From the NCBI RefSeq assembly GCF_054482525.1, contig NZ_JBTHVG010000003.1: DNA of 64,000 nt. The stretch is one strand, 5' to 3'. How positions within the stretch are numbered: the stretch's first letter is position 1; every line of letters starts with the position of its first letter. Origin of the DNA: a plasmid. Shown here piece by piece: positions 4,107-23,468 of the stretch. A program made the translations under genes and the position numbers. The notes below the pieces were generated by a model, which searched no databases, had not been told where the DNA came from, and worked only from the letters and a program-made list of their open reading frames with translations.

Positions 4107-4895
4107 ATGAAAATGCTAAGTGGCATTAACATCCCTTTTTTCAAAAAATCTAAAAAGGATGAAAACGGTGATCTTGAACAGTCATACGTAAAGAAAGATG
4201 AAAGTGCTAAGGGACGTTTTTTGGACATTAAAAAACGATTTAGCCCACAAGCTGAAGCGTCAGGTGCTGGAATTACATACAGCGCCCTGATTAATCGTGA
4301 TACAAAACTTATCCGCATTAATACTGTTTCAATAGCCGTCATTGGGTTATTGGTTGCAAAGATTCTTTTTTTCACTGACCCAGTGACGATTGTTACCCCT
4401 CCAAACATGAATGAAGAGATCACGGTTGTTGGTAACAAAGCATCGGAATCTTATAAAACACAATGGGCTCTCTTTTTTAGTACCCTTTTAGGGAATATTA
4501 ATCCAACTAATATTTCCTTTGTGACGGCCTATGTCCTCGATGCCCTTTCACCTGAACTACAGGCTAAAACGAGTGAGTCTTTACAGGAGCAGATAAATAT
4601 CATGCAGGCTCGTGGTGTTGAGCAGACCTTTAAGCCTAATGATATTTACTTTGATCCAAAAAATGACATGGTCTATGTCTGGGGTACCAAAACGACTCGA
4701 CTTGTAAATGTTCCGGACAAAACTGAATCATCGAAATGGACTTATGAATGGGTTCTCGGGATGAAAAATGGTCGCCCAAGAATTGCATATGTAAATCAAT
4801 ATTCCGGAACACCGAATATTAAAAAAATTACGATAAACGGCAAAGAGCAACTGGCAACGCTGGATAATCCGCCACCGTCTACAGGTAACAAGTGA
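4107..4895 (+). CDS. traE: T4SS protein TraE-like (VirB5/TraE family), N-terminal membrane anchor
   Basis: 262 aa, one N-terminal transmembrane segment then a periplasmic domain. Position between traL and traK. GGAG ribosome-binding site upstream. Confidence 0.55.
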   Translation: MKMLSGINIPFFKKSKKDENGDLEQSYVKKDESAKGRFLDIKKRFSPQAEASGAGITYSALINRDTKLIRINTVSIAVIGLLVAKILFFTDPVTIVTPPNMNEEITVVGNKASESYKTQWALFFSTLLGNINPTNISFVTAYVLDALSPELQAKTSESLQEQINIMQARGVEQTFKPNDIYFDPKNDMVYVWGTKTTRLVNVPDKTESSKWTYEWVLGMKNGRPRIAYVNQYSGTPNIKKITINGKEQLATLDNPPPSTGNK

Positions 4896-6166
4896 TGATT
4901 AAAAAAAAGGGCTTAGGGTTCAACGCAATTACCGCATTGATCATGCTCACGACTTCGAACTGCGTAATCGCTGAAGAATACCAATTGCCAGCAACAATTA
5001 ATAACCCGGTTGTAATGCCAGTTGGTGCTGACGGATTTCAGAATGGAGCTGCAAAAGCCATTATTCCGGGTCAAGCTGGTTCTGAACAGTCAGGTGCACA
5101 AACAAACCTTAGTGAAGCCGGTAATGCGCAGGGACAAAAACCTACAACTGATCTCCCTACCGTGCAACTTTCCCCAGCCAGCAATGCTTCGCCTGCGGTA
5201 AGCGCTATTACTGGAGCATTATCAAATAATCCTAGTCTCCCCGGATTTGACGCACAGACCCGCTCTGGTGCAATTGATAGCTATGGGAGACCAACAGGTA
5301 CCTCTTCCCAGCAGAATGCAACCAATGCGACCGCCACGTCAAAAGCCGATGAACTTTATGTCGAAGCTCGTAACCGATATAAAGAAGTTCAGCGTGTAAA
5401 TGTGCCGCCTGGTGGGAATGTGGTACTGCCAGTTTCACGAGGACTTCAAAACAGAATATCGACCAGCTTCAAGAATGCTTCTGTCAGCACTTCTACCCCT
5501 GCTGAAGAGGCAAGCATATTTGTTAATGGTGGCGATGTCTTTATTTCAACTAATACCGATAAACCAATCGGGATTATGTTGTCGGAAGATCAGGTACCTG
5601 AATCGACCTATAACCTGACCCTGGTACCGCTTGATGTTCCCGGTGCGATGATTTCAGTTACTACATCTTTAAGCCCATCTATGCAAGCCAAACGTGAAAC
5701 CTCATTGGATAAGCAAAACTATGAGGAAATGTTGGCCCGCTCCCAGTCAGAAGAACTGGCTCCATCGGATCCAAAACAAGACGATCATAAACAAAGAATC
5801 ATTGATTTATTGACTCCTGTGGCTCTTGGTGAGGTCCCTTCAGGATTCAGTTTACAACAGGACCGACTTTCTCGTATTCCTGCGTCAGAGCAGTCCCCAT
5901 GTAACTTTAATATGTATGCAAAGCTCGGTCAGAGACTGGTTGGCTCACGTGAACTTATTGATGTAATTCTTGTGAAAAACGATAAACCATACGGTCAAAT
6001 CGTTGCTGATCAGCAGTGTATGGCAGAAGGCGTTATTGCAAGTGCTTTATTTGATAAAGCATACCTGCAACCGGGAGAAGAAACAGAGCTTTACATAGTC
6101 CGGGATAAATTGTTCAAGGAACGCGAGGCCCGGGTTACAACCAGACCAAGTCTAATCAGAAAATAA
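4895..6166 (+). CDS. traK: T4SS protein TraK-like (VirB9/secretin-like) with a long low-complexity N-terminal extension
   Basis: Signal peptide. C-terminus (ELYIVRDK...) resembles F TraK (DVYVIRDG). ATG at 4895 overlaps the traE stop (ATGA). About 424 aa versus about 240 in F; the N-terminal half is rich in A/S/T/Q/N/P. Confidence 0.55.
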   Translation: MIKKKGLGFNAITALIMLTTSNCVIAEEYQLPATINNPVVMPVGADGFQNGAAKAIIPGQAGSEQSGAQTNLSEAGNAQGQKPTTDLPTVQLSPASNASPAVSAITGALSNNPSLPGFDAQTRSGAIDSYGRPTGTSSQQNATNATATSKADELYVEARNRYKEVQRVNVPPGGNVVLPVSRGLQNRISTSFKNASVSTSTPAEEASIFVNGGDVFISTNTDKPIGIMLSEDQVPESTYNLTLVPLDVPGAMISVTTSLSPSMQAKRETSLDKQNYEEMLARSQSEELAPSDPKQDDHKQRIIDLLTPVALGEVPSGFSLQQDRLSRIPASEQSPCNFNMYAKLGQRLVGSRELIDVILVKNDKPYGQIVADQQCMAEGVIASALFDKAYLQPGEETELYIVRDKLFKEREARVTTRPSLIRK

Positions 6167-6167
6167 T

Positions 6168-6629
6168 ATGGGAAAAGTTACTTTGCCTGCTCTGCTTGGG
6201 GCCACCGTGATTGGTTTTGTCGTATTTGCTTTAACCAGCTTTTACTACAGGTCAGAATATATACCAAAAAGGAGTGTATTAATCGTTCCGGACGCACCCA
6301 TTAGTATCGAAGATGGCAGTAACGCTTTTCCCGTTCAGACAGTAATAATGAACGATCCAACTCTTATTGATAAATTTGTAGGAGAGGACAATATTAATGA
6401 GGAGAATGCTTTTGACTATCACAAAAGTAACGTTTTGGAACCTAATTACAAACATGAAATATCTAGAACGAGCCAGATAGATAAAGCTGAAATGAATCAT
6501 CCATCTGTTCGTGAAAACTGGGCCAGAGCAGGTGATCCCTATATCGTTCCTCAGATGTCTGACAGCGAACGAAATCTAAAAATTAAACGATTCCAGAAAC
6601 CTACAAGTGGAGCTAATCATGGACATTAA
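6168..6629 (+). CDS. Hypothetical small membrane protein
   Basis: 153-aa ORF with an N-terminal hydrophobic segment, tightly packed between traK and traB. Confidence 0.3.
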   Translation: MGKVTLPALLGATVIGFVVFALTSFYYRSEYIPKRSVLIVPDAPISIEDGSNAFPVQTVIMNDPTLIDKFVGEDNINEENAFDYHKSNVLEPNYKHEISRTSQIDKAEMNHPSVRENWARAGDPYIVPQMSDSERNLKIKRFQKPTSGANHGH

Positions 6630-10303: not shown

Positions 10304-12985
10304 ATGGAAGCTATCAATAATTACAATAGCGGTTTAAATCGCCATCAATTAGGTGGGTTTATCCCTGTTTACGATCAATTAGCAGGGACTCACTATTTTT
10401 TGATTGATGGCAACAGATTAGGGTTTATGTTTATCTGTAATCCATCACCTGGAGTTTTTGATAATCAGCAAGATGTTCTTGCTGAAATGTTCAAAATGGA
10501 TTTTCCTACAGATACTGTCTGTCAAATATCTCTGACTGCATTGCCAGACTTGACTTTACAGCTTAGTGCTTGGTCAGCTGTGCGAGGTGGGCGTATGACT
10601 GGGAACGATAAGCTTAAAGCAGATCTGCTTAATGGTTATCAGTTGGACTACTACGACAGAAGTATGCATAAGCCTTTAAAACCTGATCATGATAACCTTA
10701 TGTTGAGGGATTTTCAGGTATGGATCTCGCTATCGATTCCTTTACAGTCTGCCCTTCCTACCGAGCTGGAACATTCGCGTATCGATTCACTTTACTCTGA
10801 ACTTGTAAGTAAGTTAATTACGATTGGACTGCATCCGTTTAAGGTCGATGCAGAAAACTGGCTCTATTGTATAGATAAGGTCGTAAACCCCGGAAAGAAC
10901 TCTCGGTGGGCTGAAGGTTTTATAGACGTTAACACTATGAAAAGGCTTAATGAACAAGTTAACGTTCCCGGCCGTAAGTATACAGTCACAGAAAATCATT
11001 TCTCATCAGTCACACAAAGTGACGACGAATCTGAGCATCGTTACTTCAAACAACTTTCCGTTGTAAAGTTTCCTGAATACGTCAATTTCGGTTGTATGTA
11101 TGAGTTAGTAGTTAACTGGATGCATGGACGTAAGACAATTTTCAGCCCATTTATGATCACTCAGACTGTTCAGTTTGCCGATCCGCTCAAGTTGTCAAAA
11201 GAAAACGTCCGCTACAAAGCAATCACTAATAAACAGGCAAGTATACCTTCAGTTGTCACATTCTGCCCTCGCCTGCGGGATATGGATAATGACTACATGG
11301 CCGTAACTCGCGAGCTTGAGGATGGCGCAAAGCTTTTAAGAGGGTATCTTACTTTCACTGTTATGGGTAGTAATGCCAATTCTGTGCAGACAGCAGCTAA
11401 CGATCTCAAATCCTTTTACCTCGAAAGCCGGGTCAAAGTAGCAGATGATTCCTTTATCGTTTTCCCGTCATTTATGTCATGTCTGCCAATGTGCAATGAC
11501 CCAAAGACAATTTTCGACCTTGACCGATCCGAAGTAGTGAGCAACACCGGAGCGGCTCATATGACGCCGATCTTTGGGCCCTGGAAAGGTAATACAGATA
11601 GACCAGTACTGAGTTTAGTTTCTCGTGAAGGTCAACTCATGGGACTTGATATTTTCAAGACTTCTGCAAGCTATAACATGGTTATTGGTGCAACGTCAGG
11701 TGCAGGCAAGTCATTCTGGACAGCATATCTAATCAATAACTATCTTGGAGCTGGACCGCGATCTAATAACCTCGTTCATTATCGCTCAACATTTAAGCAT
11801 TTTTTAGAAAACGAATACCCAGATGATGATCCTGATGGTGCTCAAGTTTTTGTAGTGGACGTGGGGCGTTCTTACCAGGGGATTGCGGAACAATATACAA
11901 ACAGTCAATTTATTGATTTCGGTAAAACCCCTGACTTCACCCTAAATCCCTTTGCCTTCCTAACTGACATCACTGTTAACGACGATGTATTTAACGAAGC
12001 ACCTGAATTTACCGGTGAATCAACTTCAAACGATGCAGAAAAAGACAAAGTTGCTCAGACCATAATGGTTCTGAATCAGCTAAAAATTATGGCTTCAGAG
12101 AAAGGCCTTATCGATGATTATCAACAATCAGTGATGCTTCAGCTTATTGCAGAAGAGTACCAGGAATCCAGAAAATCAGGTCGGACCGGTTCAATAACCG
12201 GCTTTGCTCTGCGTTGCAAGAAGCATGAAGACAAACGTATAAAGGATATTGGGGAGCAACTCGGAGCATGGTGCGAAGGTGGAATTTATGGGCACCGGTT
12301 TACCGATACGTTGCCTCCAATCAACTTCGACAGCAGATTTATTGTTTTGGAACTGGAGGAGCTAAAAGGCACCCCCCACCTTCAGACAGTTGTTTTAATG
12401 TCTATCATTCAGGCTGCTCAGCATGCAATGTTCATCAAAAAAGATGGGCGTCGTCGCTTGTTCATCCTAGATGAAGCTTGGGAGTACATTCGTCCTGATA
12501 ATTCATCAGGTGCCGGAAATCAATCAAACCAATTCTTCTCTTCCTTCCTCGAAGCGGCATGGCGTAGGTTCAGGAAAACAAACTGCGCTGGCATCTGTAT
12601 CACACAGTCGTTTGAAGATTATTTTACTTCTTCTGTTGGCCGGGCCCTGACTGCTAACTCGCCTTGGAAGATAATCATGAAACAAGAAAAAGAAAGCATT
12701 GAAGCAATGAAGGCTAATAAATATTTTTCTACTTCAGATGCAGAATATGAACGAATGAAAAATATTCGTACAGTCAAAAAGGTGTTTTCAGAGATGTTAG
12801 TCAGGTTCGAAAACTTCCAAGAGATCTGTCGGTTATACGTAGACCGGAAAATGGAGCTTTGTTTTACTACGGATAGTGCTGACAGGAGTAAATTATGGGA
12901 AATTCAAAGCCGCGAGAATTGTAGCTATGGCGAGGCAATAGAAATTCTCTATGCTCAAGAAGTAGCAGCGGGTTTGGCCGCGTAG
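10304..12985 (+). CDS. traC: T4SS ATPase TraC (VirB4 family)
   Basis: 893 aa. Walker A (GATSGAGKSF). Size and position typical of F-type TraC/VirB4. Confidence 0.85.
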   Translation: MEAINNYNSGLNRHQLGGFIPVYDQLAGTHYFLIDGNRLGFMFICNPSPGVFDNQQDVLAEMFKMDFPTDTVCQISLTALPDLTLQLSAWSAVRGGRMTGNDKLKADLLNGYQLDYYDRSMHKPLKPDHDNLMLRDFQVWISLSIPLQSALPTELEHSRIDSLYSELVSKLITIGLHPFKVDAENWLYCIDKVVNPGKNSRWAEGFIDVNTMKRLNEQVNVPGRKYTVTENHFSSVTQSDDESEHRYFKQLSVVKFPEYVNFGCMYELVVNWMHGRKTIFSPFMITQTVQFADPLKLSKENVRYKAITNKQASIPSVVTFCPRLRDMDNDYMAVTRELEDGAKLLRGYLTFTVMGSNANSVQTAANDLKSFYLESRVKVADDSFIVFPSFMSCLPMCNDPKTIFDLDRSEVVSNTGAAHMTPIFGPWKGNTDRPVLSLVSREGQLMGLDIFKTSASYNMVIGATSGAGKSFWTAYLINNYLGAGPRSNNLVHYRSTFKHFLENEYPDDDPDGAQVFVVDVGRSYQGIAEQYTNSQFIDFGKTPDFTLNPFAFLTDITVNDDVFNEAPEFTGESTSNDAEKDKVAQTIMVLNQLKIMASEKGLIDDYQQSVMLQLIAEEYQESRKSGRTGSITGFALRCKKHEDKRIKDIGEQLGAWCEGGIYGHRFTDTLPPINFDSRFIVLELEELKGTPHLQTVVLMSIIQAAQHAMFIKKDGRRRLFILDEAWEYIRPDNSSGAGNQSNQFFSSFLEAAWRRFRKTNCAGICITQSFEDYFTSSVGRALTANSPWKIIMKQEKESIEAMKANKYFSTSDAEYERMKNIRTVKKVFSEMLVRFENFQEICRLYVDRKMELCFTTDSADRSKLWEIQSRENCSYGEAIEILYAQEVAAGLAA

Positions 12986-13012
12986 AGTAAATATCTTCAA
13001 GCAAAAACAATT

Positions 13013-13046
13013 AAACCAGATGTCTCATAAGAATCTGGTTTTTTAT
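13013..13046 (+). terminator. Putative intrinsic terminator after traC
   Basis: aaaccagatgtctcataagaatctggtttttt: hairpin followed by a T-run. Confidence 0.5.
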
Positions 13047-13379
13047 TGTATGCCTTAAGTAAACAAATGAGGTTATGACTTAATGAGTTCATCACTGTGC
13101 TGCAAATTTTGGTTTTATAATTAATATGGCTTAAAAACAGTGACATAATTACAAATCGCATTTAGGTTGTGTACGCATTAAGTAAACAAAATTTATAACA
13201 TCAATACTGACTTTATAAGATGAAATTCACGTAAATTACATTTTTGTTTACCAAAGGTAATCAAAGGAGCGCGGCATTATTAGTGAAAACAGATCACTGG
13301 TGTCATATTGCATACAAAACTTAATATCCTTTAATCATTCTTCTAAAAGTTTAATATTAACGCTTTGGTTTATGAAAAT

Positions 13380-16300
13380 TTATCCAATTTGCTCACCGAA
13401 GACTTTTAACTTATTTAACCCCCTTTATCGCCAATCTGTGATTTTCTAATGTTAGCCTACAGTTCTAGGGCCCTTGCTCCCATGATGCGAATCCTTCCAC
13501 CTAATAAAGATTAACGCCTCATTCCTGTATGCCGGTCTTACGACGCCAGTGCACGGACAATTTTTGGTCATCACAAGGCCAGGCGGGAGATTTAATCAGG
13601 GCGTGGTGTTCCTTAGCAGCAGCTGCGGCACTGTAAGCCGAAGGCGGAATTAACTCCTTTATCGCCATCTGGGGACGTCATTAGGGGTACCCCTTTTAAC
13701 TTGCTCAGGACCATTAAGCTAAAATTCCGGATAGTGATTGACGTAAGATTTAGGCTAAGCAGGTAAAGTGATCCCCGCTCCCGGGGTGACCACTTTATAC
13801 AAAAGGCCGATCGGAAGATTGTCCTTAGGGAAATATTCCTTTAACACAGCACGGGCACTTACTGCCGCTGCCGGATTTAACCCCCTTAATCGCCAAACTG
13901 GGGTACTGTCCTGATGCTGGCCTTCAGTTCTGGGCTGGGTGGCTATCACTTCCTCCCATAATGCGAAATGTAACTGCTGATACAGATTAACGTCATATTC
14001 CTGCGTGCCGGTCTGCCAACACCAGTGCACGGGCTTTTTTCGGTCATCACATTACCGGGCAGGAGATTTTATCAGGGCGTGGTGTGACTGAGCAGAAGCT
14101 GGGGCACTGTCAGCAGCTTGCAGATTTAACCCCCTTAATCGCCAAACTGGGATTCTGGTCTGATATTGACCTTCCGTGCTGGGCGGGGTTCGGTTTGCTA
14201 ACACTTACTCCCATGATACGAAATGTGCCTGCTGATACAGATTAAAATCACATTACTGCATACCGGTCTGCCGACACCGGTGCATGGGCGATTTCCGACG
14301 ATCTCAAGAACATATGGGAGATTATATCAGGGAGAGTAGTATGCCTGAGCAGCATCTGAAGGCACTGTCAGCCGCTGTCAGATTTAACCCCCTTAATCGC
14401 CAAACTGGTGTTCTGTCCTCATGCAGGCCTTCAGTTCTGAGCTGGGTTGCTATCACTTGCTCCCATAATGCGAAATGTACCTGCTGATACAAATTAACGT
14501 CGTATTCCTGTATGCCGGTCTGCCGACACCAGTGCTCGGGCTATTTTCGGTCCTAACAAGACCTGGCGAGAGATTTAATCAGGGCGTGGTGTGACTGAGC
14601 AGCAGCTGGGGCACTGTTATCCGCTTGCAGATTTAACCCCCTTAATCGCCACACTGGGGTTCAGTCCTGATAGTGTCCTTCCGTCCTGGGCTCGGTTGCT
14701 AACACTTGCTCCCATTGCGCCTGCTGATACAGATTAAAGTCACATTACTGCATACCGATCTGCCGACTCCGGTGCATGGCTTTTTCCGATAATCACAAGG
14801 ACGGACGGGTGATTTTATCGTTGCATAGTATGTCTGAGCAGCATCAGAAGGCTCTGTCAGCCACTGGCAGATTTAACCCCCTTAATCTCCAAACTGGGAT
14901 CAGTCCTGATAGTGTCCTTCCGTCCTGGGCAGGGTTGCTAACACTTGCTCCCATGATACGAAATGCGCCAGCTGATACAGATTAACGTCTCATTACTCCA
15001 TGCCGGTCTGCCGAAACTGGTGCATAGCTTTTTTCGATATTCGCATGAACAGACGCTTGATTTTTTCAGGTTGTAATATACCTGAGCAGCATCTGAAGGC
15101 ACTTTCAGTCGCTGTCAGATTTAACCCCCTTAATCGCCAATCTGGGATTTTCTGATGTTAACCTACAGTTCAAGGCCCTTGCTCCCATGATGCGAACCTT
15201 GCAACCTGATAAAGATTTAAGCTTCATTCCTGTATGCCGGTCTTACGACTCTAGTGCACGGGGACTATTTTCGGTCATAATAAGACCTGGCGGGAGATTT
15301 AATCAGGCGTGGTGTGACTGAGCAGAAGCTGGGGCACTGTCAGCCGCTGGCAGATTAAAACCCTTTATTCGCCATCTCAAGACGTCATTATGGGTAGTCC
15401 TTTTAACTTTCTAAGGACCATTAAGCTTAAACTCCGTTTAGAGAATGACGTAAGATTTAGGCTAAGCAGGTTAAGTGATCCCCGCTCCCGGGTTGAACAC
15501 TTTATTCATCGTACGAGCGAAAGATTGTCCTTCGGGAAATATTTCTTATACACCGCTCGGGCACTTACAGCCACTGGCGGATTTAACCCCCTTAATCGCC
15601 AAACTGGGGTACTGTCCTGATGCTGGCCTTCAGTTCTGGGCTGGGTGGCTATCACTTGCTCCCCTAATGCGAAATGTGTCTGTTAATACAGATTAACGTC
15701 ATTTTCCTGCGTGCCGGTCTGCCGACACCAGTGCACGGCCTTTTTTCGGTCATTACATTACCGGGCAGGAGATTTTATCAGGGCGTGGTGTTACTGAGCA
15801 GGAGCTGGGGCACTATCAGCAGCTTGCATATTTAACTCCCTTAATCGCCAAACTGGTGTTCTGTCCTCATGCTGGCCTTCAGTTCTGGGCTGGGTTGCCA
15901 TCTCTTGCTCCCATAATGCGAAATGTATCTGCTGATACAGATTAACGTCATATTCCTGTATGCCGGTCTGCCGACACCAGTGCTTTGGCTATTTTCGGTC
16001 ATAACAAGACCTGGCGAGAGATTTACTCAGGGCGTGGTGTGACTGAGCAGCAGCTGGGGCACTGTCATCCGCTTGCAAATTTAACCCCCTTAATCGCCAA
16101 ACTTGGGTTTTGTCCTGATGCTGGCCTTCCGTTCTGGGCGGGGTTGCTATCACTTGCTCCCATCATGCGAAAAGTGCCTGCTGATACAGATTAACGTCAT
16201 ATTCCTTCATGCCGGTCTGCCGACACCAGTGCTTTGGCTATTTTCGGTCATAACAAGACCTGGCGAGAGATTTACTCAGGGCGTGGTGTGACTGAGCAGC

Positions 16301-16700
16301 AGCTGGGGCACTGTCATCCGCTTGCAAATTTAACCCCCTTAATCGCCAAACTTGGGTTTTGTCCTGATGCTGGCCTTCCGTTCTGGGCGGGGTTGCTATC
16401 ACTTGCTCCCATCATGCGAAAAGTGCCTGCTGATACAGATTAACGTCATATTCCTTCATGCCGGTCTGCCGACACAAATGCACGGGCTTTTTTCGGTCCT
16501 TACAATACCGGGCAGGAGATTTAATCAGGGCGTGGTGTGACTGAGCAGCAGCTAGGACACTGTCAGCCGCTGGCAGATTTAACCCCCTTAATCGCCACAC
16601 TGGGGTTGCCTCCTGAAGTTGGGTTTCAGTTCTGGGCTAGGTTGCTAACTCTGCTCCCATAATTCGTAGTGGGCCTACTCAAGAGATTAACACCTCATAT
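13380..16700. repeat. Tandem direct-repeat array, about 14 units of about 221-259 bp (mostly 249 bp), with higher-order periodicity of about 1.7 kb
   Basis: Recurring block ...CAGATTTAACCCCCTTAATCGCCAAACTGG...GCTCCCATAATGCGAAATG...CTGCTGATACAGATTAACGTCATATTCCTG...GCCGGTCTGCCGACACCAGTGCACGG...GATTTAATCAGGGCGTGGTGTGACTGAGCAGCAGCTGGGGCACTGTCAG. Two adjacent units are identical (identical 69-aa track ORFs at 15985 and 16234, 249 bp apart). Segment 13400-13870 recurs at 15120-15580. Confidence 0.9.
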
Positions 16701-17070
16701 CTTTAGACTGGACTGACGACAACGATTCACAGTTAGGAAACGTAAATCAGCACACCGGTGAGATAGATTTTAGGGTCTAAGCAAGAAATAGGGTAGGCGT
16801 GAAGATTCATTAATGGAGCTCATAACGTCAAAGCGTAGAGAAGTCGACAAGAATCGTGGTTTAAAAAGAATGAGCATTAGGTATGGACTAGAGAGTCTGA
16901 GCTCTCATCTGCAAGTTAAGCTCACAAAAAATCATAAAAAAGTAAACAAACATTAGCTTAGGATTGAAACAAAGGATAGAATTGTACGTATAACAATGAA
17001 ATGGACGCATTATGCGTAAAGTTTACATATATGCGTAAAAGTCGGTTTTCAGTGCAAAAAGGTCATAACC

Positions 17071-18324
17071 ATGAATTTACTTGAAAAGATCGCCCTCGTT
17101 GGTCAGCGCATGAAAAGCGAGCAGATTTCTCTTAAGGAATCTCTGATGGCTTCATCAAGAGTATCTGTTTCTGATGATAGTGTTGATGGTGTTGATAGAC
17201 TGATCTACAACCACTGTTTAAATAAAAAAAATCTCTCTGATTTTTTTGGGAAGTCACGAGTAACGTTCAATAAAATACTTTCGGACTTAGAAGAAAAAGA
17301 AGTTGTTGGTGCACCTATTTATCAAAACAAAAATCATCTTTACACCCGCTGGGATGTTCAAAAAATAATGGATGCCCTGGGTTATCCCAAGTACCGCGAT
17401 CATTACTTTAGCAGAGCTATTGTTACTCAGAATCATAAAGGCGGTACAGGGAAAAGCACTACATCTGTAGCTTTAGCAGTAGCAGCTGCTTTAGATCTAC
17501 AACTGAATGCACGTGTATTAATGATCGAATGGGACCCACAAGGTTCGATTGGAAGCAGCATGATTCAAAGTGTCTCAGAAGATGATGTCTTCCTTACAGC
17601 AATTGATGCAATCCTTGGAATTTATGAAGAAAATTCTGAGTATAAAAAATATTTAGATTCAGGATTCTCTGAAGAAGAAATCATCACTAATATGCCTTTT
17701 TCAACGCATCTGCCAAACTTGGACGTGATAACGGCATTTCCGACAGATGCTCGTTTTAAAGATAAATACTGGCAATGTTCTAGAGAAGAACGAACGTCTT
17801 TGTTACTACGTTTCAAGGAAGTTATCTTACCGGTACTGAAGCAGAACTATGATTTGATTATTATAGACACTCCACCTGAAGATTCACCTTTGATCTGGGC
17901 TGCTGACGAAGCGGCCGATGGGATTCTTGTCGCAGTGTCACCACGTGAATATGATTACGCCTCTACTACAGACTTCATGCTTACAATAAGTGAAAGGTTT
18001 AAACAATCACCAAGTAAGGGCGATAATTTAAAATGGTTCAAAGTTCTTGCTGTCAATGTTGATGACAAAAGTCCATATGAAAGAATAGTTTTGGATAAAT
18101 TAATCAGAACTGTTCAGGACCTTTTGATGTCCGCTAACATAAAAAATTCTGAAGCATTTAAGGCAGCTGCTTCCAAAGGGCGTACAGTGCTTGATATCAA
18201 AAAATCAGAGGAACTTTGTTCCGCAAAGCAACTTGATGTCGCAGAAGAATCTGTATTACAGGTATATCAACAATTTATAAATGAAATAAAAAGTTTTTCA
18301 GCTAAGCAAGGAGTTAACGCATGA
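17071..18324 (+). CDS. parA: Partition ATPase ParA (type Ia, with N-terminal HTH extension)
   Basis: 417 aa. Deviant Walker A (KGGTGKSTT). Size and N-terminal extension as in P1 ParA / F SopA. Stop overlaps the parB start. Confidence 0.85.
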   Translation: MNLLEKIALVGQRMKSEQISLKESLMASSRVSVSDDSVDGVDRLIYNHCLNKKNLSDFFGKSRVTFNKILSDLEEKEVVGAPIYQNKNHLYTRWDVQKIMDALGYPKYRDHYFSRAIVTQNHKGGTGKSTTSVALAVAAALDLQLNARVLMIEWDPQGSIGSSMIQSVSEDDVFLTAIDAILGIYEENSEYKKYLDSGFSEEEIITNMPFSTHLPNLDVITAFPTDARFKDKYWQCSREERTSLLLRFKEVILPVLKQNYDLIIIDTPPEDSPLIWAADEAADGILVAVSPREYDYASTTDFMLTISERFKQSPSKGDNLKWFKVLAVNVDDKSPYERIVLDKLIRTVQDLLMSANIKNSEAFKAAASKGRTVLDIKKSEELCSAKQLDVAEESVLQVYQQFINEIKSFSAKQGVNA

Positions 18325-19325
18325 GCGATGAGCAACATATCGGGAATGATAAATCTCGATATTTAAACGCACCAAAGCGGACAGAAGTCGGTCACCGTTC
18401 AGGTCTTGCGGGTTTGAAAACAGCACCTCGCATAAAAAAGTTATTCACTCTTCATAAGGGCCGAAGACTTGAAGCGGAACATGTGATTGTTCCAGCCCAG
18501 AGAGTGGAGAAGGAGACCTTAGTCCATCCAGCAAACCCACGAAATCAAGAAGCCCTTACAGATTATTCTGTTAGAGATATTCTTAAGCAGATTGAAGAAA
18601 GAGGGGTCGATACCGAAGGGATCGCTGTAAAAAGAGATGGGGTTTATTTATTAATAGAAGGAAGTCGCAGACGTTTCTGCTGTATAAAGGCAGAAAAGGA
18701 TCTCCCCCTGTGGGTACTACCGGATGAACTAACCGAAGATGATATAAATTCAATTATATCCGCAGCACAAACATCTCGAAAATTTTCATATAGAGAAGTT
18801 GGGTTTCAATTTATCAAGAAAATGGAAGAAAAGGGATTTTCTACTAATGAAGAACTCGCAGCATATCTTGGGATTAGTCATGTATCGGTAGCCAAAAGAA
18901 TCCAGGCGGCACGTATTGACGAAACATTGATCTCTTTATTCCCGGATTATGAAGGAATACCGAACTCCTATTATAGTCGCTTGTCTCGTTTACAGAAATA
19001 TGTGCAAAAAAATCTATTTCCTTTAGATGAAGTAATAGATAATGTTAAAGAGGAAACAAAAGATTTAGACATTGGAGATCTCCAAGTTGCCCAAAAAGTT
19101 GTAATGGAGAAAATCACACAATCTGTGGAAAGTGTTTGTGAAAAATCTTATTCCACAAAATGGGAAACAAGTGATCTTATTACTTTTGATAACAAAGATA
19201 AGTATGCAAGAATCAGTAAAAACAATACTGGAAGAAAAATTCGCATTGAATTCAATAGGATAAGTGCGGGTTTTATTAAGGAGCTAGAGGAGTTCATAAA
19301 AGAAAAATTAAAAGTATCAGAATAA
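18321..19325 (+). CDS. parB: Partition protein ParB-like
   Basis: 334 aa. ParB-box-like GSRRRF motif (LLIEGSRRRFCCI). ATGA overlap with parA. Confidence 0.65.
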   Translation: MSDEQHIGNDKSRYLNAPKRTEVGHRSGLAGLKTAPRIKKLFTLHKGRRLEAEHVIVPAQRVEKETLVHPANPRNQEALTDYSVRDILKQIEERGVDTEGIAVKRDGVYLLIEGSRRRFCCIKAEKDLPLWVLPDELTEDDINSIISAAQTSRKFSYREVGFQFIKKMEEKGFSTNEELAAYLGISHVSVAKRIQAARIDETLISLFPDYEGIPNSYYSRLSRLQKYVQKNLFPLDEVIDNVKEETKDLDIGDLQVAQKVVMEKITQSVESVCEKSYSTKWETSDLITFDNKDKYARISKNNTGRKIRIEFNRISAGFIKELEEFIKEKLKVSE

Positions 19326-22430: not shown

Positions 22431-23468
22431 ATGGCTGAACTATTAAAATCTGAAAGTCCTGTTTCACAATCATTGCAGGATATCACTGAAGCTTTAAAAA
22501 TCGTTGTCGATGATGGAAGTAAAGCTGCAAAACTGGTTTGTCTTAATGAAAGAAACGAATTAGTTCCCTTGCTCACACAAAATAGTTTTGTTCCAGATTT
22601 CCGTGTTCGCCATGAGGGTCTCAATCCTTTTAACTATCTTATTGATGGGCTGGAAAGGTTTTCGCATCACAGCGAATCTAGTAACTCACTGGAATCGACT
22701 GATGTATCTCACCAATACGATGAAATTAGCCGGTTAAATGTTCACCATGCACTTCATGCTTCTGGTTTAGTTCCTCAGGATGTTCACCTCTTTGTTACTT
22801 TACCTCTTAGCCAGTTCTATACTGCTTTAGGGGAAACGAATATTGAAAATATTCAGAGAAAAAAAGATAACCTGATGAAACCAGTTGAGCGTTATCTTGA
22901 CGGTAAACGCTATTCTTTCAACGTTTTGTCTGTGACTGTTTTCCCTGAATCTTTACCAGCTGTGACCCGGGCAGATGAAATTGAGGATATTGCTTCATTT
23001 GAATCAAGTTTGGTAATTGATCTTGGTGGTACTACTCTTGATGTTGCAAGTATTACTGGGCAATTAGAACAGATTTCGAAAGTAAAAGGTTTTGACCGTA
23101 TTGGTTGTTCTATTGTTTACGATGAGATCAGCAGGTATCTTGAATCTGAGAAACTGAATACGAGTAATGCTTACATTCATCATCTTGTTGATAATCGTCA
23201 TGATAAATCAGCTTTGAAGGTTGCAGAGGACAAGCGTGACGGTGTTTTTGATGCGGTAAACTCTGCGGTACAGAAGTTGCAAAGTAAAGTAATCAGAGCG
23301 GTTACACAAGTCGAAGAGAGGCCTCATAATGTTTTCCTTGTTGGGGGAGGTTCATATCTCATCGAAACAGCTATTCGTAAACATTTTGAAACGGCTAAAG
23401 TTATCATGGTAGACAATCCGCAGTTCGCATTATCTTTGGCAATTGCTGATACTATTTATTCAGAATAA
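22431..23468 (+). CDS. parM: Actin-like segregation ATPase ParM/StbA (type II partition)
   Basis: 345 aa. Actin-fold phosphate motifs (IDLGGTTLD; VFLVGGGSY). Followed by a small putative adaptor gene. Confidence 0.75.
   Translation: MAELLKSESPVSQSLQDITEALKIVVDDGSKAAKLVCLNERNELVPLLTQNSFVPDFRVRHEGLNPFNYLIDGLERFSHHSESSNSLESTDVSHQYDEISRLNVHHALHASGLVPQDVHLFVTLPLSQFYTALGETNIENIQRKKDNLMKPVERYLDGKRYSFNVLSVTVFPESLPAVTRADEIEDIASFESSLVIDLGGTTLDVASITGQLEQISKVKGFDRIGCSIVYDEISRYLESEKLNTSNAYIHHLVDNRHDKSALKVAEDKRDGVFDAVNSAVQKLQSKVIRAVTQVEERPHNVFLVGGGSYLIETAIRKHFETAKVIMVDNPQFALSLAIADTIYSE

Follow-up and report, generated by a model that had tools for sequence, protein, structure and literature searches.

A tandem array of 249-bp units upstream of parA as the probable centromere of the IncHI2 Par1 partition system

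What is the role of more than 3 kb of repeated, non-coding DNA that separates a conjugation gene from a partition operon? The question is raised by a 64,000-nucleotide stretch of plasmid DNA (contig NZ_JBTHVG010000003.1, assembly GCF_054482525.1; the whole stretch is called the window hereafter), in which a tandem array lies between trhC and parA. An earlier note on this DNA had considered a centromere or incompatibility role for the type Ia parAB operon plausible, and had named a protein-titrating sponge and a structured-DNA element as further possibilities. The comparative evidence supports the first of these. The array most probably serves the Par1 (ParA/ParB) partition system of IncHI2 plasmids as its centromere, a parS array, because a 21-bp core in its units is conserved, travels with homologous parAB genes, varies with ParB and resembles the small parS site of P1 (parS-small).

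A 21-bp core in a tandem array of 249-bp units

Tandem Repeats Finder detected one large array in the window, at positions 13853-16691 (period 249, 11.6 copies, 73% matches), and no other large tandem repeat in the 64 kb. The array was extended to the left of this call by anchoring on the motif ATTTAACCCCCTTAATCGCCA, of which 13 copies with no more than 5 mismatches, all on the plus strand, were located between 13413 and 16597; a 14th and more degenerate copy at 13648 brings the total to 14 units. The units lie head to tail at 13413-16700 on the plus strand with a spacing of 227-258 bp (mode, 249 bp), and the last is only half a unit and is no longer recognisable beyond about 16700. The estimate of about 14 units of about 249 bp in the earlier note was borne out. 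The same scan of the 64-kb window revealed no core outside the array and none downstream of parB, so that the remark that parB has no centromere downstream of it holds for this motif.

The core ATTTAACCCCCTTAATCGCCA consists of the dyad TTAA-C5-TTAA followed by CGCCA and stands once in each unit, at its start. Exact copies were found at nine positions (13875, 14124, 14382, 14631, 15119, 15581, 16079, 16328, and 16577). It was the best-conserved 21-column window of the unit alignment (rank 1), with a mean pairwise identity of 0.92 as against 0.61 elsewhere, and 76% of its columns were invariant across the four unit subfamilies, compared with 28% outside it. Cores are intact in 12 of the 14 units, and the spacers fall to 65-80% identity between subfamilies. 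The three sub-motifs once described as fixed did not prove to be equally so, as they occur in two, four and one exact copies, respectively, and only the 21-mer core is near-invariant. A repeated motif with such dyad symmetry would be suited to a dimeric helix-turn-helix (HTH) ParB, and the core is accordingly treated here as a putative ParB site.

The core was also compared between the window and a second IncHI2 lineage. It differed at 17 of 441 positions (3.9%) and the spacer at 336 of 4736 (7.1%; Fisher p=0.008), where the second lineage was represented by two near-identical plasmids and each unit was paired with its best match, which is not a proven orthologue. The same comparison gave differences of 1.0% for parA, 1.6% for parB, 0.7% for trhC, and 3.5-4.3% for the flanking non-coding DNA; the spacers thus vary at least as fast as the unconstrained DNA next to them.

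Alignment of the units with MAFFT separated four subfamilies and the terminal half unit (Table 1). Units u8-u10 repeat units u1-u3 at a distance of 1706-1707 bp, with identities of 85% (u1/u8), 82% (u2/u9), and 94% (u3/u10), which confirms the higher-order period of about 1.7 kb noticed before. Likewise, the block 13849-14148 recurs at +1706 (94%) and the block 13652-13801 at +1707 (85%). The two adjacent units that had been called identical share an exact run of 267 nt at an offset of 249 nt, and this duplication lies at the end of the array where IncHI2 plasmids differ in copy number. The G+C content of the array is 0.50, compared with 0.42 for the window and 0.32-0.43 for the immediate flanks. 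Arrays were richer in G+C than their own plasmids in all three lineages checked (0.50/0.42 in the window, 0.54-0.57/0.43 in R27, and 0.59/0.48 in pWLK-238550).

A megablast search with positions 13000-17100 matched 1,129 plasmid records, typed IncHI2/IncHI2A, MOBH and MPF_F and derived chiefly from Escherichia, Salmonella and Enterobacter. These matches assign the window to a conjugative plasmid of the IncHI2 (R478-like) type. A whole-unit query, with the distant mode included, matched only IncHI2 plasmids in the plasmid collection.

Array length was compared across related plasmids, as the earlier note had proposed. In 11 IncHI2 plasmids the trhC-parA gap measured 1383, 3089, 3338, 3587, 3836, 3838, 3901, 4085 (the window), 4087, 4103, and 5348 bp, and the numbers of detectable cores were, in the same order, 2, 9, 10, 11, 12, 12, 12, 13, 13, 13, and 18. 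The edges were fixed in all 11, with the first core 428 nt after the trhC stop codon and the last 494 nt before the parA ATG; the changes in copy number are therefore internal and come in whole units, the pattern that unequal recombination would produce. Among 40 records sampled across the set, most had 11 matching places, the extremes being 2 and 18. Assembly error does not explain the array, although an individual assembly may give an incorrect copy number. The smallest array was that of pSH111_227 (NC_019114.1; 5573-6957 of the stretch compared), in which the 1383-bp gap holds two detectable cores, or about three units. The largest was that of pF1022-1 (NZ_OY754358.1; 1652-7001 of the stretch compared), with 18 detectable cores in a 5348-bp gap; it owes its additional units to repetition of a 249-258-249 triplet within its left half.

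Related parAB operons and known centromeres

Relatives of the operon were collected by tblastn with ParA (2,181 plasmid records), and representatives were taken at falling identity. The IncHI1 plasmid R27 (ParA 89%, ParB 71.5%) contains 28 cores, of which 18 include the exact 19-mer TTAACCCCCTTAATCGCCA; they lie in a trhC-parA gap of 3.1 kb, in one array of 5.6 x 54 bp and another of 21.6 x 52 bp. Plasmid pCFR-eb27 (ParA 88%, ParB 73.7%) carries 11 cores at a spacing of 54 bp, and pCFA1707-1 (ParA 89%, ParB 71.8%) carries 7 at a spacing of 56 bp, just upstream of parA. The parAB genes of pCFA1707-1 are located on a different, non-IncHI backbone with no tra operon upstream. The 19-mer TTAACCCCCTTAATCGCCA is common to the window array and these three plasmids. 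A lone exact 19-mer core was also observed in pCFA1707-1 at 11690 on the minus strand, about 4.4 kb downstream of parB and near a second gene of the ParB/RepB/Spo0J family.

At lower identity, pWLK-238550 (ParA 64%, ParB 47.6%) has 67-bp units with the core AACAACCCCCTTGTTCGCAG, 36 sites being upstream of parA and 15 downstream of parB. This core reads AACAA-C5-TTGTT-CGCAG, so that the arms are changed and the dyad is preserved. The two arrays occupy 1-2732 and 5447-6409 of the stretch compared, and the upstream one shows a higher-order period of 334 bp (5 units) at 91% identity; 67-bp arrays flanking parAB were also found in related Klebsiella and Raoultella plasmids. The Providencia rettgeri plasmid pZ32CR2270_NDM (ParA 64%) has two single cores, AACAACCCCCTTGTTCGCCA, and no tandem array. 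They are located at 4863 and 7441 of the stretch compared, one 138 bp upstream of parA and the other downstream of parB, and this plasmid looks like the unexpanded state of the system.

Linkage of the core to parAB consequently holds in the 11 IncHI2 plasmids, R27, pCFR-eb27, pCFA1707-1, pWLK-238550, and the Providencia plasmid. When the IncHI2 intergenic region was compared with those of R27 and pCFR-eb27 by sensitive blastn, only the cores (21-25 bp) and about 110 bp of the parA promoter/operator aligned, and the remaining 228 bp of the IncHI2 unit had no counterpart in either plasmid. The core is therefore the element that travels with parAB. Its sequence is unchanged in the plasmids whose ParB is 71-74% identical, and differs in the one with a ParB identity of about 47%. 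The recognition-helix segment of the HTH reads SHVSV in the four ParB proteins that share TTAA arms and SVESV in that of pWLK-238550.

A genome-wide scan for the core (298 Gb) returned 110 matches, most of them single; by our own estimate the single matches are about as many as expected by chance, and only loci with several hits are informative. Contigs of Superficieibacter, Pseudocitrobacter and Atlantibacter showed a core spacing of 248-249 bp, as in the window. In Xenorhabdus mauleonii (NZ_FORG01000011.1), 3.8 copies of a 144-bp unit with the core AAAAACAACCCCCTTGTTCGCCA on the minus strand were observed at 5626-6173. No parAB genes were found within the 9.3 kb examined around that array, and the neighbouring open reading frames (ORFs) of 470-778 amino acids had no NCBIfam match.

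The ParB of the window belongs with that of P1. It matched the structures of P1 ParB(142-333), 1ZX4 and 2NTZ, with E=4e-16 over residues 150-330, which cover the HTH and the C-terminal dimer domain, and it was assigned to Pfam PF08775 (P1-ParB family, C-terminal; residues 207-330) and NCBIfam TIGR00180 (residues 62-223). The Pfam search at E<=10 returned PF08775 only and no N-terminal ParB/Srx domain. A GSRRR motif was observed in the ParB alignment; together with the TIGR00180 coverage and the missing Pfam match, it points to a divergent N-terminal domain. ParA matched Vibrio cholerae ParA2 (7NPD, E=4e-37) and P1 ParA (3EZ2, E=3e-12).

The parS site of P1 is composed of heptamer boxes A and hexamer boxes B in the clusters BA and AABA around a site for integration host factor (IHF), and A2-A3-B2 is enough for binding (PMC10999674). 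The parS sequence used for comparison was 100% identical to K02380 4654-4725, in which ParB-binding boxes are annotated at 4654-4660, 4697-4703, 4705-4711, and 4717-4725. Box B is presumably TCGCCA, which fits the interval between A3 and A4. Alignment of the IncHI core with P1 parS-small, ATTTCAAGGTGAAATCGCCA, gave 13 matches including AATCGCCA, a score reached by only 26 of 20,000 composition-preserving shuffles. In this alignment ATTTAAC-CCC-CTTAAT-CGCCA of the core stands against ATTTCAA-GG-TGAAAT-CGCCA of parS-small. Both sites have two inverted arms and then TCGCCA, as in A2-A3-B2, with the hexamer in the same relative position, and the homology of the cognate ParB proteins extends over the HTH as well as the C-terminal dimer domain that binds box B. 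The arms, however, are only partly similar (ATTTAAC equals ATTTCAA at 5 of 7 positions, and CTTAAT replaces the P1 TGAAAT). Moreover, P1 has a single composite site with an IHF bend downstream of parB, whereas the window has 14 tandem sites upstream of parA.

In F, the sopC centromere is built of 12 units of 43 bp in tandem, and SopB binds the single 16-bp inverted repeat that each of them contains. Like sopC (see PMC2910045), the array of the window consists of tandem units with one dyad site each beside a type Ia partition operon. In contrast, sopC is located downstream of sopB and has a unit of 43 bp and an unrelated site, whereas the window unit is 249 bp long and upstream of parA; among the structures matched by the window ParB were P1 ParB and VirB, and not SopB. 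Judging from these comparisons, the array may be regarded as a P1-type site multiplied in the manner of sopC, rather than a strict member of the P1 parS class. The objection that the units are far longer than those of parS or sopC stands for the unit itself, at 249 bp, but not for the recognisable site, which is 21 bp long, the other 228 bp being filler-like.

The closest likeness is to R27, in which the Par1 module is an experimentally established stability determinant (PMC4489591). The position between trhC and parA, the core of 19-21 bp and the ParA operator palindrome are identical, and both plasmids have same-strand site arrays of several kilobases. R27 differs in having 28 sites in two blocks of 52-54-bp units, compared with 14 sites and 249-bp units in the window, and the spacers are unrelated. 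The plasmids pWLK-238550 and pZ32CR2270_NDM have the same ParAB family and sites with 5-bp inverted arms, a C5 spacer and CGCAG or CGCCA, but their arm sequences are different, their units are 67 bp long or absent, and their sites lie on both sides of the operon.

Proposed function and competing explanations

According to the proposed mechanism, ParB dimers would bind the 21-bp site of each unit. By analogy with P1 ParB, the arms would be recognised by the HTH domains and the TCGCCA box by the C-terminal dimer domain. From these sites, about 14 within 3.3 kb, ParB would probably spread, and it could build one large partition complex, which would be positioned by nucleoid-bound ParA-ATP in such a way that each daughter cell receives a plasmid. 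The complex, formed near the probable ParA operator, may also feed back on parAB expression; a role for ParB in autoregulation is suggested by the closeness of the palindrome ACGCATTATGCGT to the array. Because the core is identical in IncHI1 and IncHI2, partition incompatibility is predicted across the two groups. The sponge of the earlier note need not be a separate idea, since titration of ParB is how a centromere exerts incompatibility.

Several observations weigh against a centromere function. The centromere of a type Ia system is usually located downstream of parB, and the array is upstream of parA. The IHF consensus WATCAANNNNTTR was matched 8 times in the window, but the interval 13000-17070 contained no match. 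The likeness to P1 is short and confined to the IncHI form of the core, as the Providencia and pWLK-238550 forms gave no significant alignment with P1 parS-small, which would be expected if the arms carry specificity. The lineage comparison is limited by its near-identical plasmids and best-match pairing, and concerted evolution through recombination could inflate conservation inside the array. Finally, pSH111_227 keeps only about three units, and most of the array is therefore dispensable for persistence in nature.

A competing view is that the array is a neutral satellite in which one or a few cores work as the centromere, whereas the rest of the units arose by unequal recombination without adaptive value, are kept alike by homogenisation and add nothing to partition. 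This is unlikely in our judgement. It accounts for the persistence of pSH111_227 with two detectable cores in a 1383-bp gap, for the drift between 9 and 18 copies among otherwise near-identical plasmids, for the exact 267-nt duplication as a sign of ongoing turnover, and for spacer divergence that equals or exceeds that of the flanking non-coding DNA. Nevertheless, the cores have stayed intact in 12 of 14 units despite spacer drift, which argues for selection on many sites. Large arrays with unrelated spacers arose independently in several lineages of this ParAB family (28 sites in R27 and 51 in pWLK-238550), and at least 8 units are kept by nearly all of the sampled IncHI2 records (about 1,100).

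A related question is whether the length of the unit matters if the array is indeed the centromere. The 228-bp spacer looks like filler in its behaviour. Box A-like heptamers in the spacers numbered 11, compared with 7.1 +/- 2.6 in shuffles, and box B hexamers numbered 3, compared with 1.4; neither excess was significant. By arithmetic alone, unit lengths of 52-54, 56, 67, 144, and 249 bp have no common helical phase. The spacer is most likely passenger DNA that was fixed at the first unit duplication. The array could have been founded by unequal exchange between two sites that far apart, and it would since have grown and shrunk by unequal recombination of whole units. The unit length looks like a historical accident, because lineages with the same site use 52-56, 67, 144, and 249 bp with unrelated spacers.

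It is doubtful that the 249-bp unit was itself selected, as a satellite-type centromere with ParB loading sites about 24 helical turns apart and higher-order repeats. Were this true, the complex would have an architecture unlike that of the packed 52-54-bp IncHI1 arrays, for example with more room for sliding or bridging at each site, or with G+C-rich filler that excludes nucleoid proteins. Differences in the length of the array would in that case adjust stability, copy-number sensing or cross-incompatibility with IncHI1, and the array would be a prokaryotic parallel to alpha-satellite units with their CENP-B box.

Less probable still than neutral expansion is a mainly regulatory or insulating array, in which ParB would tune the parA promoter or G+C-rich DNA would act as a shield, with the true partition site elsewhere. 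As a shield, it would guard constitutive parAB from H-NS silencing and from read-through out of the AT-rich, thermoregulated tra operon. The array is close to the ParA operator and the parA ATG, and arrays are richer in G+C than their surroundings in three lineages. Insulation is also favoured by work on R27 (PMC7366339), in which expression of parA and parB was high at both temperatures and that of the tra genes was thermoregulated. However, the 64-kb window has no further copy of the core, and the cores of pWLK-238550 and the Providencia plasmid are found downstream of parB as well, where they would be unable to insulate the promoter. Furthermore, the array of pCFA1707-1 accompanies parAB without a tra operon upstream. 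A very unlikely explanation, in our view, is the result.

The array is non-coding, as the earlier note had stated. No ORF longer than 91 amino acids was found between 13161 and 17071, stops occur in all six frames of three in-phase units, and the ORF of 91 amino acids at 13755-14030 is not retained in the duplicate block. The Rfam search of the array gave no match at E<=1. One unit folded as RNA was less stable than shuffles on both strands (z +1.4 and +1.8), which speaks against the structured-DNA element that had been suggested. Promoter-like sites numbered 3 in the array (6.4 expected), and terminator-like sites 5 (4.2 expected), without excess. A coding relic, with 249 as 3 x 83, was ruled out by the stops in every frame. 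Repeated small RNA or peptide genes were rejected, as the units have no open frame, promoter/terminator pair or conserved fold each, and so were replication-origin iterons, as the neighbours are trhC and parA/parB with no rep gene and the core tracks parAB on other backbones. Despite a period divisible by 3 and short hypothetical proteins annotated within the array in some database records, it is thus hardly credible that the units encode small proteins, a repeated small RNA or structured single-stranded DNA, or that they are origin iterons, given the stops, the absence of Rfam matches, promoter or terminator excess and stable folds, and the linkage of the core to parAB in relatives.

Tandem centromere arrays and P1-type ParB sites are already known. 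In the searchable literature, neither an account of the IncHI2 array nor one of a ParB site in IncHI plasmids was found; the paper of Lawley and Taylor (2003) and the R478 genome paper were outside this scope and may hold one. Nor was a description found there of the 21-bp core as a common IncHI ParAB element with a P1-like layout, or of the long-unit, higher-order 249-bp form with its unit-step polymorphism. The IncHI5 and IncHI3 papers merely name "parABC".

More than 1,100 plasmid records contain the array. IncHI2 plasmids are important vehicles of resistance to heavy metals and of mcr and carbapenemase genes, and the IncHI group is defined by mutual incompatibility. Partition cross-incompatibility between IncHI1 and IncHI2, if true, would be one contributor to that property. 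The predicted 21-bp Par1 site offers a concrete target for ParB binding studies, plasmid curing and incompatibility strategies. The unit-step length polymorphism is a ready typing marker, and short-read assemblies of the array may give a wrong copy number. With one protein family and one motif, the single sites and the arrays of 52-, 54-, 56-, 67-, 144-, and 249-bp units form a natural series, which could be used to study how bacterial centromere arrays arise and whether spacing matters.

Flanks, neighbouring genes and minor features

The features of the locus are listed in Table 1. The trhC gene, whose product is labelled TrhC or TraC in the records of IncHI2 plasmids and R27, is the last one before the array. 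The hairpin that follows it lies inside a detected inverted repeat and was missed by the consensus scan, which needs at least 3 G-C pairs. On the other side, 370 bp separate the end of the array from parA, which parB directly follows. The palindrome ACGCATTATGCGT is exactly conserved in R27 (position 5932 of the stretch compared) and pCFR-eb27 (5931), and related 20-bp repeats are found at the same place in R27; it is probably the ParA autoregulatory operator.

Table 1. Coordinates of the array, its units and the neighbouring features in the window
Feature	Position	Strand	Remarks
trhC/traC, VirB4-type conjugation ATPase	10304-12985	+	893 aa; NCBIfam TIGR02746 TraC-F-type, E=4e-132
Terminator-like hairpin after trhC	13013-13044	+	AAACCAGAT, 11-nt loop, ATCTGGTTT, T-run; read from sequence
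AT-rich left flank of array	13045-13412		G+C 0.32-0.34
Unit/core starts, u1-u7	13413, 13648 (degenerate), 13875, 14124, 14382, 14631, 14871	+	
Unit/core starts, u8-u14	15119, 15354 (degenerate), 15581, 15830, 16079, 16328, 16577	+	
Example core ATTTAACCCCCTTAATCGCCA	13875-13895	+	Exact copy
Unit subfamily A			u3, u5, u10-u13; 86-94% alike
Unit subfamily B			u4, u6, u7; about 80% alike
Unit subfamily C			u1, u8; 85% alike
Unit subfamily D			u2, u9; 82% mutual, about 42% like remaining units
Terminal half unit			u14; own kind in alignment
Higher-order block, copy 1	13413-14123	+	u1-u3 (types C, D, A)
Higher-order block, copy 2	15119-15829	+	u8-u10
Most recent duplication	15960-16475	+	Starts at 15960; 267 nt recur without mismatch 249 nt further on
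parA promoter/operator region	16928-17070	+	Aligns with the R27 region (74% over 110 nt) and with that of pCFR-eb27
Palindrome ACGCATTATGCGT, perfect	17005-17017		54 nt upstream of parA ATG; flanked by related half-sites
parA, long type Ia Walker ATPase	17071-18324	+	417 aa; NCBIfam ParA families
parB, P1-type centromere-binding protein	18321-19325	+	334 aa; PDB, Pfam and NCBIfam homology

The 64 kb contain three exact copies of an 11-mer, AAGTAAACAAA (13057-13067, 13180-13190, and 16940-16950, plus strand), all of them in the AT-rich flanks of the array, with an inverted near-copy at 13243-13252. It is absent from the matching regions of R27, pCFR-eb27 and pCFA1707-1 and was kept out of the model for this reason; it could be the binding site of an IncHI2-specific factor or a product of chance. 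The parM gene of Par2 is located near 22431, downstream of parAB. The two D-type units (13648-13874 and 15354-15580), which have degenerate cores, contain a palindrome centred on GGGGTACCCC (13669-13708), and the first of them survives even in the minimal array of pSH111_227.

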